DNA of 29,843 bases from Candidatus Heimdallarchaeota archaeon (GCA_019056785.1 DXJV01000053.1:1-29843), one strand, 5' to 3'. Counted from the first letter of the stretch, positions 1-15,320 are shown. The notes: generated by a model from the sequence alone, not told the origin. Program-made: numbers and translations.

Positions 1-3000
1 AAACTCACAACAACTGTACTCGTCTTAGATGATGAAAACCAACCCGTCAGTGGGTTAGATTTTGAATTGTGGTACAAAATCAACGGGACATACAAACACA
101 TCCCTCATATTTTCACTACAAACAGTAGCGGACAAGCAGACATTTTGCATTCTATAGACCAACTCGAGCCTGGCTTTTACGAAGCCTCCCACTTTTTCCA
201 ACCTCTCGATTATGTTATTGGATATTCCGGCGGTTCTCTCTTTGGCAATACAACTGTCGCAAAAGGTGAGCTTCTCCTCGAGTTTTCAAATCATGCCGGT
301 CAGTGGCATGAAAACCTGACCATCTCTGCGCGTGTTACCTCCCTTGCAGAAGGTTGGATGGGTGTGTTGGTTGAATTTTATTACCTTGCAGGAACCAGTT
401 GGTCATTTATTGCTGCGGGGTTAACAAATAACTCTGGCTTTGCAGTGGTCACCTGGCCGACTATACCTTTAGAAGCAGGCAATTATCTTCTCCGTGCAGT
501 TGTCCCTGAAAATGCACTATTTACTGCTGTGGAAGAGAATGCTTCTTTGATTGTGGGGCGTGCGCCTATTACTTTATTCTTGTTTAAAAATGGTTCATTA
601 AAAGGAAATGGTGAGATCGTCGAAGTCGAATACCTCGAGACTTTTCATTTCCTATTCTTCGCGACATATGAAGATGGGCAACCGGCAACAGATGTTATAA
701 TTACAATAAAAGCTCGTCTACTTGATGACTTCTTTTATACAAAGCTGGGTTCCATTGTCACCAATGGTACTGGCTTTGCTCTGTATAGTGGCTATCATTA
801 TTTAGATCTTGTTGGCAATGAATATCTTTTCAGGGCGGAAATTGCTGAAAACAGTCAGCATGAGGAAGAAGTACTCTATTTTAAAGTTCTTCTTACCAAA
901 TGCAAACCCATTGTTTATTTCACAGACCATTTATGCGAGAAAGGAACTTCGACAGAAGCTGTCGCTCAATTTGTTAGTATTGATGCTCGTGCGGTGAAAA
1001 ACGCCCAAGTCGTTTTCATTGTGAATGGTTTAACATTTACTACCAGAACAGATAGATATGGCTTTGCGAGGATAATTATTGTTCCTGACTTTTCTGTTGG
1101 GCAATACACATTTCTCTGCCAAATAATCGAAGACAGCTTCTTCGCAGCCGCAGAAAAGAATGCTACTCTTGTTATCTCAAAAGGGCGCCCTCAATTTACT
1201 GTCTTTGCCGCTGCAGCACCAAAAGATGGTTTTTTAACGATCCGTGCAGAAGCAAAAGACTTACTCAATCGGCCAATAGCCAACTTATCCGTGTTATTAA
1301 CTGTTCAAAGCTGGAGTCAATACTTCCTGACAGATGCCAATGGGCAGATTGAATATACTTTCCAGGTTACCGGTCTTGATTATGGCACGTACCTCTCCAT
1401 TCTAACGTTCGACGGTGATAATAATTGGTTTAGTGCAACACAAACTAGTTCTGTCTTAATCTATCAAAAAGAGTCACAATTGACCCTCTTAACAACTACT
1501 CTTACCGTGACTTATCTTGATCAACTCGTTGTAGATGGGCTTTTAACAGATGAATTTGGAACTCCTTTGAGCAACCGTTTAATCCAATTCTTTCTTATCT
1601 ATTCAAATGGTTCAATGCTTCAATTAGGTGAAAATCAGACTGATGAACACGGCAGGGTTCAGCTTACCTTTGAAATTGCTTTCATCCCGGGAAGCTATGA
1701 CATTAACCTTCATTATACGGGTGCAGTGGATTTTGGACCGGCAAATGCAATGACCTCTCTTCTCATAGAACAGGCGGCAACAAAGCTTGCAGGTGAAGAT
1801 GTAACGGTCATAATAAATTCAACAACCAGTTTCAATGTCACTCTTCAAAGCCTACAGGGACAACCAATAGTCAATCAAGAGCTAAGTGTGTATGTCTGGC
1901 AGAATGGCTCTTGGTTGTTTCTCGGAAAATTCCAGACAAATTATCTTGGTATTTGCATGGTTGGTTTTTATGTGCCTTTCTCCATTGGCATTTATTCGCT
2001 TCGAATTACTTACTCAGGAAATGTTTGCTTCCTAAGCACCACACTCGAGGTGAATCTGGAAGTTGTTGCCAGCCCCCCACAAATTACGCCGCAACTTTCG
2101 GTGATACTTGAGAAATCTACGGTGGTGCCATTTGAGTTTTTAACGGTCGAACTGCAAGCGCAAAATGCTTATGCCGGAAGCTCTATCGTCATTCAAGTGT
2201 ATGTAAACGGTACTTACAATTCTACATTTATTCTCTTTGATGGGCTTGGCAGTTTTACCTGGGCTGCAGAGCAGGTGGGCTTGTACAACCTAACTTTCTT
2301 GGTGGTTGAAGATGCACTTTACTTCAAAACAAGTGTAATGGTAATTATTGAAGTCATTGAAAATGAACCACCTGAGCTTCTGGGATATTCATTCGAAGAC
2401 ATTCTTTTTGTAGGAGATCCGTTCGTCATCGAAGCCGCCTTTTATGACGAATCCGGAATTGGGAGCTGTTGGCTTACTATTAACGGTACAAGATACGATT
2501 TAGAACCAATAGGCACAGTCTACAATGGAACTGTCTTCGATTTGGAAGTTGGTCACTACAACCTCACTCTCTTTGTGGAGGACCGGCAAGGATACCTCGC
2601 ATTCTACCCTGTTAAACAATTGCTTGTCATAGAACGAAAAACTCAGGTAGTGAAATACAATTTGAATACAAACATCCTGGAGTTGGGACAGGACTTCAAT
2701 TTTGAAGCACTTATTTATAGCGAAACAACCGTCGAAGCCGTTTATCTTTTCTTAAACGGCACAAAATACCAAATGACCAAGCTTTTTGAAAATACTCAAC
2801 AACTAAGTGGCTGGTCTATCGTCTTAAAGTCCCTGCCATTGGGGACATACTGGCTAGCCATGCAAATTGTTGAAACAAATGGCGCTGTCACCACAGGAGA
2901 AATACATGACTCTTTGCTTGTGATCCCGAATAGACCAACAGTATCTATTAGTTGGACCGTGGAACAGAGCGAAGGTAGCGATTATGTCAGTGGCTTAATA

Positions 3001-14582: not shown

Positions 14583-15320
14583 CTAAGATTTAGTTGTGAA
14601 CTCATAAAGACTAATTAAATCCTTTTGGAGTCGTCTCAGGAGAATAATGATGGCAATTCTTTCTTGCACAAGTTCACGGTCCAAAGCTATCATAAGCGTT
14701 TCAAGCTGTTTAAGAACGTAATCGGTGTACTCATCTGTTATTGTTAGTTGGGGGTTGCCTGCGATAAGGTGTATTGTTCCAGTATAGGTTTTATCAACAA
14801 TAATTTTAGTCACTTCCCAGAAAATTTCCTCAGTGATAGTTATTCCCTCTTCTTTGAGCTGGTTTAAAACACATTCAATTAACGGTTTGGTATTGATTAA
14901 TTTTTTAATTTCTCCAAGAACTTTTGGGTCGCTAGGGATAGTTTTCTGAAGGCGGTAATTGTTCAGTTGAATATATTTTTCAAAAAAGTGGTGTTGTGTT
15001 GGGATCGGGTCGATGCGGGTCTTCAAGGAGGAACTGAAAAATTCGCCATCAAAAGTTATATCGATAAGATGGATTGGTCCATTCTTTCGCAAGAGATTTT
15101 TTCGTAAAAACAAGTCTACAGGGGCATAAATTTCATGGTCACTCCAGATCTGAACAAGGATTTCCTTTCCTAGGGGATCAATCAAGACTAACCGCAGATA
15201 GGGTTTTTTATTTTTGGCCACAAGATCCTTTGCATCTTTTAAAGTTGCAAAAATACTCACTGTGCCTGGTTCGGTCAATTCTCTGAAGAAAAATACCGGC
15301 TCTTTACTGTGGTTTGTCAT
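14583..15320 (-). CDS. OB-fold nucleic-acid-binding protein with a helical C-terminal domain
   Basis: The N-terminal FATLKDAKDLVAKNKKPYLRLVLIDPLGKEILVQIW resembles the OB fold of YhaM/DnaE/RPA-type proteins (xKNGKPYLxLxLxDxTGxIxxxhW). No HD motif follows. Confidence 0.6.
   Translation of the reverse strand: MTNHSKEPVFFFRELTEPGTVSIFATLKDAKDLVAKNKKPYLRLVLIDPLGKEILVQIWSDHEIYAPVDLFLRKNLLRKNGPIHLIDITFDGEFFSSSLKTRIDPIPTQHHFFEKYIQLNNYRLQKTIPSDPKVLGEIKKLINTKPLIECVLNQLKEEGITITEEIFWEVTKIIVDKTYTGTIHLIAGNPQLTITDEYTDYVLKQLETLMIALDRELVQERIAIIILLRRLQKDLISLYEFTTKS

Follow-up and report, generated by a model that had tools for sequence, protein, structure and literature searches.

To our knowledge, chromosomal DNA-exchange machines in archaea are known from Thermoproteota only, namely as Ced and Ted. 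Ced (Sulfolobales) and Ted (Thermoproteales) are domesticated type IV secretion systems (T4SS) that serve DNA import (PMC9905601, PMC11868833, PMC11823120). Ced needs the VirB4/VirD4-like proteins CedB and CedD (PMC11868833, PMC11823120). The loci of Ted adjoin HerA and Rad50 genes, which has been read as DNA import coupled to recombination, and those who described Ced and Ted knew of no other domesticated conjugation apparatus (PMC9905601). Here we analyse a locus of Candidatus Heimdallarchaeota archaeon, at positions 1 to 15,320 of a stretch of 29,843 nucleotides (GCA_019056785.1 DXJV01000053.1:1-29843; the whole stretch is called the window below), which encodes a protein with a VirB4/HerA fold together with membrane proteins and DNA-handling proteins. 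A preliminary reading of the DNA sequence alone (the sequence-only reading) had proposed that this locus is a chromosomal cell-contact and DNA import or exchange module coupled to repair, in a lineage for which no such description was known. On the latter point we can agree, as the literature searched on archaeal VirB4/HerA, RadB, DNA import and Heimdallarchaeia contained no description of the module.

The window covers the opening 29.8 kb of a contig in an 82%-complete Heimdallarchaeota (Asgard) metagenome-assembled genome (MAG), and near-identical DNA is present in hydrothermal-vent and marine-sediment metagenomes; for positions 3827-13104 no matching RNA dataset was found. The locus is a vertically inherited gene module that is specific to part of the Heimdallarchaeia and links envelope proteins with DNA-handling proteins. 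The envelope side is made up of g01, g02, g03 and g04, and probably of g09. The DNA side comprises g07, the seemingly active ATPase g05, g08, and a superfamily 2 (SF2) repair helicase, which is Hef in the window and a Hel308-like protein in a sister family. The open reading frames (ORFs) of the locus are as follows (aa, amino acids).

1..3876, plus strand: g01, 5' open at the contig end, C-terminal 1291 aa of a giant surface protein
3827..5137, plus strand: g02, envelope protein with a transmembrane segment at either end
5139..5927, plus strand: g03, transmembrane hairpin protein
5933..6616, plus strand: g04, multipass membrane protein
6585..7301, plus strand: g05, RadB-like ATPase of the RecA superfamily
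7306..9816, minus strand: Hef helicase-nuclease, convergent with g05 and divergent from g07
9868..13104, plus strand: g07, VirB4/HerA-fold pseudo-ATPase of 1078 aa
13071..13601, minus strand: g08, small protein with an MmcB-like PD-(D/E)XK fold
13706..14575, plus strand: g09, multipass membrane protein
14583..15320, minus strand: g10, protein with an OB fold and a helical domain

The module resembles Ced and Ted in several respects. It is chromosomal and vertically inherited, its VirB4/VirD4-fold protein is accompanied by membrane proteins, both polytopic and small, and it is linked to recombination genes, these being HerA and Rad50 in Ted and Hef, XPD, Hel308-like and RadA/RadB-like proteins here. 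On the other hand, g07 lacks the P-loop Lys/Ser and the Walker B DE and is extended by a winged helix and by ~400 aa at its C-terminus. The module yielded no VirB2/CedA1/TedC-like pilin and no VirB6/CedA-like channel was shown, whereas its integral parts include a giant Ig adhesin, a RecA-family ATPase and a PD-(D/E)XK-fold protein. Furthermore, the module belongs to Heimdallarchaeia and not to Thermoproteota, and it has no sequence similarity to Ced or Ted components. With respect to the T4SS-derived class as a whole, g07 possesses the VirB4-family P-loop domain but not the catalytic motifs.

Gene order and conservation in relatives

The four envelope genes and the RadB-like gene had been described from the sequence as one tightly coupled run, and this is what the coordinates give: five plus-strand ORFs that overlap or are separated by at most 5 nt. 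The start of g02 (3827) precedes the stop of g01 (3876) in a 50-nt overlap; g02 (stop 5137) and g03 (start 5139) are 1 nt apart; g03 (stop 5927) and g04 (start 5933) are 5 nt apart; and the start of g05 (6585) lies before the stop of g04 (6616), an overlap of 32 nt. Beyond 7301 the genes alternate in strand. Hef and g07, g08 and g09, and g10 and the thermosome gene make up three divergent pairs, and the 15 kb are therefore not one operon in this genome.

Six genomes of the genus share the gene order of the window, at 35-73% protein identity, or 35-87% when the stretch is taken to include the thermosome gene. Because the colinearity extends to that gene, by itself it indicates only general synteny. 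Loci of the sister family were reached via distant homologues of g05 and then via the flanking genes. Four genera of this family carry the genes as one co-directional operon whose ORFs overlap or nearly abut, in the order 612-aa glycoprotein with signal peptide and C-terminal transmembrane segment, 467-aa protein with two transmembrane segments and a cytoplasmic domain, g04, g05, g08, g07 and Hel308-like helicase. In some genera the operon is followed by a RadA paralogue and a 2118-aa Ig giant. A closed sister-family genome of 3.1 Mb displays the array RadA paralogue, two unknowns, g09-like, giant, g03-like, g04, g05, g08, g07, helicase and g02-like. The g09 homologue is located directly upstream of the giant in this genome (hhalign 97.6%) and elsewhere in the genome in other genera. 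In the sister family g08 sits directly between the RadB-like and the VirB4-like gene, on the same strand, and the g04 homologues lie directly upstream of the RadB-like gene; the start-stop overlap of g04 and g05 is kept in both families. The order is thus shuffled between lineages and the set of giant, g02, g03-like, g04, g05, g08, g07 and SF2 helicase stays together, as is classically expected of a functional module. Scattering of the genes in related genomes, which according to the sequence-only reading would have spoken against the proposal, was thus not seen.

Remoter versions of the locus exist. A third family has a g07-like gene that precedes a Hef-like helicase. In a genome of another class (G117), a g07 homologue of 1417 aa with two predicted transmembrane helices (L081:5668-9921, minus strand) is located between a protein with seven transmembrane segments and a g08 homologue with the same D...ExEN motif; this locus also holds a single-pass CBM-like protein and a Hef-like helicase without the nuclease part. 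That a remote g07 homologue is itself anchored in the membrane supports the view that membrane and DNA-side genes form one system.

Two genes within or beside the sister-family operon have counterparts in the family of the window as well. Relatives encode paralogues of RadA (435-449 aa) and of a Hel308-like helicase (735-747 aa) close to each other, ~21-23 kb upstream on the same contig (L088, G009:C26:146001-160000), and these two paralogues also occur together on another contig (C52) of the MAG from which the window derives (L090, G000:C52:14001-32000). Among the other multipass and unknown neighbours (409, 350, 336, 384, 443 and 446 aa), BLASTP displayed no homology.

These data bear on the possibility that the locus consists of two unrelated neighbours, namely a surface-protein operon (g01-g04) and a DNA repair gene set. 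The alternation of strands after g05, the extension of same-genus synteny as far as the thermosome gene, and the lineage-specific adjacency of g10 and Hef would all fit such a view. However, the sister family has membrane and DNA-side genes in one operon of a single direction whose ORFs overlap at their ends, and the gene families remain together despite changes of order between genera. In addition, translational coupling links g04 to g05 in either family, and the remote version of g07 is itself anchored in the membrane. We therefore regard two unrelated gene sets as very unlikely.

The VirB4/HerA-fold protein g07

The product of g07 consists of an N-terminal domain (residues ~20-220), a P-loop-type domain (240-585) and a winged helix (~616-704); after these come a helical region, an acidic linker that is disordered and, at the C-terminus, a bundle of helices. 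Its assignment to the HerA/VirB4 fold, which had been made from sequence alone, agrees with a structure search of the AlphaFold2 (AF2) model: the closest match is VirB4 (4ag5) with a score of 27.3 and a root-mean-square deviation of 3.2 Å over 320 residues, covering residues 240-585 of the model. Further structural matches are DndH-C (24.1), TrwB (21.8), HerA (21.5) and FtsK (about 14). As judged from the model, the nearest solved relative of g07 is a secretion ATPase. Among sequence profiles, a remote relative of g07 (P0016) touches HerA DUF87 at E 0.0096 and a sister-family copy touches RPA_C in the winged-helix region. The Pfam VirB4 model (PF03135) matches nothing, g07 included, and no ORF of the locus has a Pfam match to DUF87 or NurA.

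A profile search with g07 yielded 16 matches in total among 1.84 billion representative proteins, which marks a very narrow family. The gene was found in all 10 genomes of the family of the window, in 25 of 29 genomes of the sister family, and weakly in a third family. The distribution of g09 (11/11, 20/29, 1/1 and 2/3 genomes of four families) resembles that of g07, except for one family in which g09 is present in 2/3 genomes and g07 in 0/3.

The Walker A site of g07 is collapsed (GEEDARQT), with the helix of the model beginning two residues past the strand, and the Walker B site reads ENLDE. Neither the catalytic Walker A pattern (GxxxxGK[ST]) nor the catalytic Walker B pattern (hhhhDE) is present in g07. 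Sister-family homologues have AGDNKTRE and IDDAE at these sites and remote homologues are likewise degenerate; across three families, and in a remote homologue as well, every copy has lost the P-loop Lys/Ser. Degenerate as it is, this P-loop sequence shows conservation of its own, with G276 and R281 nearly invariant, and the ratio of nonsynonymous to synonymous substitution rates (dN/dS) of g07 is 0.08-0.10, equal to that of Hef. Conservation and dN/dS together point to a maintained pseudo-ATPase and not to a decaying gene, and the notion that the VirB4-like protein is a pseudo-enzyme has accordingly gained in substance.

The combination of a VirB4-like fold with destroyed motifs and of adhesin and membrane proteins may also suggest the relic of an integrated conjugative element, with a decayed ATPase and no present cellular role, given that archaeal integrated elements are known to carry VirB4/HerA genes (PMC9259645). 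Apart from the nearly invariant residues in the former P-loop, what speaks against this is that the ORFs are all intact across genomes at 35-70% identity (dN/dS 0.05-0.31) and that the composition is uniform, with an even GC content of 0.36-0.44 across the window. There is also no integrase and no tRNA border at the locus, the sole tRNA gene (19757-19835) being located beyond the thermosome gene. A relic thus appears highly improbable.

Bacterial T4SS with VirB4/TrwK and VirD4/TrwB differ from the module, in which g07 is dead and which contains no VirB3/6/8/10 set and no relaxase and is not located on a mobile element. The archaeal HerA-NurA end-resection machinery (with Mre11-Rad50) differs as well: the partner in the module is MmcB-like and not NurA, the ATPase motifs are lost, and membrane proteins are part of the operon. 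Many structural neighbours of g07 are HerA proteins from defence systems (Sir2-HerA, DUF4297-HerA, DndH, TdpAB), which may suggest anti-virus or anti-plasmid defence, with envelope sensors coupled to a helicase, a PD-(D/E)XK effector and a scaffold of the HerA/VirB4-like kind. Sir2-HerA/Nezha, DUF4297-HerA, DndFGH and Hachiman share with the module a HerA-class fold, a nuclease-fold protein and a Hel308-like helicase. In addition, HamB models match the helicase of the sister family (E 7e-35), and there are weak matches to mad8 for g05 and for g07 of the sister family (E 4e-7 and 3e-4), all of them generic P-loop or helicase matches. The HamB match, however, reflects the shared Hel308/Ski2 family, and Hel308 is the better match (E 1e-50). 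PADLOC-DB 2.0 contains no model that matches g03, g04, g07, g08, g09 or g10 of the window. Unlike defence systems, the module is a conserved syntenic core dominated by membrane and adhesin components; it is near-universal in two families (10/10 and 25/29), is located among housekeeping genes of even GC content, and is under strong purifying selection, unlike patchy defence islands. That the module is a defence system is hence improbable.

Region upstream of the window

Since the run of genes continues beyond the contig end, the sequence-only reading had suggested looking upstream for an active VirB4/HerA ATPase and for small pilins. Neither was encountered. What relatives encode there is the missing part of the giant and, directly upstream of its gene and on the same strand in 6/6 relatives, an XPD/Rad3 helicase (DEAD_2 + Helicase_C_2, 604 aa; L013:1016-2830, same position in L014-L018). 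In the genome of the window this gene would lie just off the 5' end. In a closed sister-family genome XPD is located ~10 kb from the module. Within the locus there is no small ORF with two transmembrane segments, and the gaps between g01 and g05 leave at most 5 nt; pilins encoded elsewhere in the genome are possible. The hairpin protein g03 is unlike a pilin in that it carries a 180-aa cytoplasmic domain.

DNA-handling proteins

Pfam and NCBIfam were run on all ten ORFs. The product of g05 belongs to the RecA/Rad51 superfamily (PF08423, 45.7 bits, cut-off 22). With TIGR02237 it scores 80.9 bits (E 1e-22), which is under the equivalog cut-off of 172.4, and the protein is therefore termed RadB-like and not RadB, much as the sequence-only reading had named it. 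Its best match in the PDB, which spans the full length, is RadB (2cvf, E 1.6e-11). Both Walker motifs, A (GPPKSGKT) and B (LLIIDS), are intact and conserved. Orthologues of g05 are specific to the family of the window; in the sister-family operon the same place is held by a diverged, RadB/KaiC-like homologue with an N-terminal extension.

The minus-strand gene that follows the envelope and RadB-like run had been identified as Hef, and it is a canonical one (NF010337, 717.8 bits, cut-off 610), with DEAD, Helicase_C, ERCC4 and HHH_5 all present. Helicase motifs I, II and III are intact. The usual ERCC4 motif is ERK. In the window and in four same-genus orthologues checked, residues ~660-677 of Hef read GDY...VEYKKGED, with EYK for ERK. 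A Hef-like protein in another genome (L080:6574-8946, G032) is encoded two genes after a g07-like gene and has helicase and HhH parts, with no detectable ERCC4 or GD...ExK.

For g08, the nuclease fold proposed earlier is reflected in an ESM Atlas model (predicted TM-score 0.78), the nearest clusters of which are MmcB-like PD-(D/E)XK proteins (TM-scores 0.70 and 0.67, feature score 0.90); there is no Pfam match at E 0.01, the MmcB-like family PF06319 included. The motif D63...E76-x-E78-N is invariant in both families and in the homologue from another class, and Glu takes the place of the canonical catalytic Lys of (D/E)xK. The OB fold that had been suggested for g10 is recovered faintly: the protein looks like an OB fold (tRNA_anti-codon type) plus a helical domain, as in OB-HD/YhaM-like proteins without the HD motif, at TM-scores of 0.44-0.48. 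Matches of g10 to MAGE and ArsR were dropped (E 0.45-0.75).

All identifiable enzymes of the module and its surroundings are repair or recombination proteins (Hef, XPD, Hel308-like, RadB-like g05, RadA paralogue, MmcB-like fold). This raises the possibility of a membrane-tethered repair complex, or of a complex that couples the chromosome to the envelope in order to anchor it, segregate it, or repair stalled forks and crosslinks, for example by way of Hef/XPD/Hel308; the proteins would assemble on the inner face of the membrane, with no DNA crossing it. The winged helix of g07 comes after the P-loop domain, just where FtsK has its gamma domain, and g07 could not act as a motor; neither channel nor pilin was found. 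Such a complex would account for the enzymes but not for the adhesin and ectodomain genes. We consider it a serious alternative, although on balance rather unlikely.

Envelope proteins

Topologies were derived from a hydropathy scan and from alignments. The envelope gene types given in the sequence-only reading (Ig-repeat giant, single-pass protein, 2-TM protein, multipass protein) hold, the 2-TM protein being a transmembrane hairpin; in the single-pass g02 the hydropathy scan gives an N-terminal segment, which may be a signal anchor, and a C-terminal one.

The g01 fragment displays Ig-like repeats, many N-x-S/T sites, one transmembrane segment (fragment residues 1075-1093) and, on the cytoplasmic side, a tail of ~200 aa that is acidic/lysine-rich. 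The giant inside or beside the sister-family operon is a homologue of g01. The Ig-like domains are sub-threshold in the fragment and above threshold in a full-length orthologue of 1705 aa with a signal peptide (Big_3_5, 53.4 bits; Big_1, 40.7 bits). In two same-genus relatives g01 and g02 are fused in frame into one continuous ORF of ~2120-2140 aa (L015:2859-9227 in G010 and L016:1822-8238 in G008). The g02 product itself has an N-terminal transmembrane segment or signal anchor, a beta-rich glycosylatable ectodomain of ~300 aa, the C-terminal transmembrane segment and an acidic tail. It aligns colinearly with the 612-aa protein of the sister family in the C-terminal half, including a membrane-proximal motif (hhalign 46%, E 2e-4), and judging from this profile match the two are probably homologous.

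The g03 protein has a basic N-terminus, a transmembrane hairpin at about residues 48-78 (counted from the ATG used here) and a cytoplasmic domain of ~180 aa. This domain contains an invariant DCxEGCF motif (residues ~154-160), which may be a metal or redox site. The 467-aa protein of the sister family matches g03 in topology and operon position; homology between the two was not shown by hhalign (probability 1.4%).

The multipass protein g04 has 4-5 transmembrane segments plus a short beta-hairpin, and a dN/dS of 0.06-0.07. Its AF2 model is weak (predicted local distance difference test score, pLDDT, 63) and gave no significant structural match. The AF2 models were made for g04 and g07, and the alignments are shallow. 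Matches in the g04 family to Yip1 (2/7 orthologues, E 2e-5) and DUF975 (E 2e-3) were both under the cut-off. The second multipass protein, g09, has the conserved motifs PGxxMHxVWH and GLPDxxDL. It had been taken for a relative of g04, which we reject, as no relationship is detectable by hhalign (probability 0.2%). Neither g04 nor g09 has a Pfam family above cut-off, and in a collection of 5.8 billion proteins the homologues of g04 occur only in Heimdallarchaeota/Asgard MAGs and those of g09 only in Asgard MAGs, all unannotated. The membrane proteins are thus orphans restricted to Asgard MAGs, and the matches to unrelated S-layer or transport families that would have spoken against the earlier proposal were not seen.

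Overall, g02, g03, g07, g08, g09 and g10 have no Pfam or NCBIfam match. Among PDB sequences, the profiles of g02, g07, g08 and g10, and that of the 612-aa protein from the sister family, found no meaningful match, so there is no sequence link of these orphans to fusexins or any solved protein.

Remaining part of the window

The right half of the window consists of housekeeping genes, encoding thermosome, an alpha/beta hydrolase, PadR, ferredoxins, Sir2, and Nop5 with fibrillarin. The longest ORF for the thermosome extends from 15309 to 17204 on the plus strand; its GTG start at 15309 adds a hydrophobic N-terminus of ~77 aa that is absent from orthologues. The true start is most likely the ATG near 15540, leaving ~220 nt to the divergent g10. 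A tRNA-Thr (CGU) at 19757-19835 on the minus strand is the sole RNA gene found in the window by ARAGORN and an Rfam scan. A local peak of GC skew (+0.25) is located at 20001-21000, among short ORFs only, ahead of a ferredoxin gene.

Possible mechanism

Based on this dataset, we tentatively favour an apparatus that exchanges or imports DNA and is coupled to repair, Ced/Ted-like in action, differently built and not of that family; we give this reading, which draws on fold and gene context, somewhat less than an even chance. VirB4 and TrwB act at the cytoplasmic face of membrane channels. In the proposed apparatus the membrane proteins would form an envelope complex, and g07 would dock on its cytoplasmic face in the position of VirB4/VirD4, as a non-hydrolysing, probably oligomeric ring or DNA-binding scaffold. 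Energy and DNA processing would be supplied by g05, which is translationally coupled to g04, by the helicase and by g08. DNA would enter or leave at a cell contact made by the giant adhesin and would then pass to homologous recombination.

Bacterial natural competence employs a ComEC channel, the SF2 ATPase ComFA, DprA and RecA. The proposed mechanism is alike in logic, by analogy only, in that DNA passing a membrane channel with the help of an SF2 helicase-type motor would be received by a protein of the RecA family; it differs in that Pfam and NCBIfam display no homology to ComEC, ComFA or DprA in the module.

A number of observations weigh against DNA transfer. Concerning g07, the sequence indicates that the protein cannot hydrolyse ATP, and its AF2 model has a mean pLDDT of 71 from an alignment of 17 sequences. 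No active VirB4/HerA ATPase adjoins the locus, canonical DUF87/HerA genes being located elsewhere in the same genomes, and a VirB6/CedA-like or ComEC-like component was not shown at the locus. Proteins of the RecA family and of SF2 have roles in repair irrespective of any such apparatus. Hef adjoins the module in the family of the window and in remoter versions and not in the sister family, where in closed genomes it is more than 1 Mb away and the Hel308-like helicase is in place after g07. As regards distribution, the module was missing from the majority of Heimdallarchaeia families searched, g07 and g09 being found in 0/21-22 and 0/11-12 genomes of two other families. The equivalence of g02 and g03 between families is suggested by a weak profile match and by topology, respectively. 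The gene g10 was found in 11/11 genomes of the family of the window, where it is always adjacent, and in 0/69 elsewhere; it is at most a putative member of the module. Of the original proposal, the linked set of envelope and DNA-handling genes therefore stands, and the passage of DNA is suggested, now as before, by the modelled fold and the gene context.

A bolder version of DNA exchange would be a chromosomal, vertically inherited mating machine that arose independently of Ced and Ted, with contact through the Ig adhesin, DNA passage through the orphan membrane proteins, docking of the DNA on a ring of the dead VirB4-like protein with its winged helix, and hand-over by the RadB-like ATPase, the nuclease-fold protein and Hef/Hel308-type helicases to the dedicated RadA paralogue. 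It would mean regulated genome exchange, coupled to recombination, in part of the Heimdallarchaeia, which are among the closest known archaeal relatives of eukaryotes. We consider this version unlikely.

Conclusions

The module may be an envelope DNA-handling machine built around a VirB4/HerA-class protein, with a real chance of something further removed from what has been described. Even without DNA transfer, it adds new families, namely a branch of VirB4/HerA-class pseudo-ATPases, a D...ExEN variant of MmcB-like proteins and four orphan membrane families, and it provides a concrete, testable set of proteins for structural and biochemical work. If DNA is indeed moved between cells, this would bear on gene exchange and recombination in the lineage nearest to eukaryotes.

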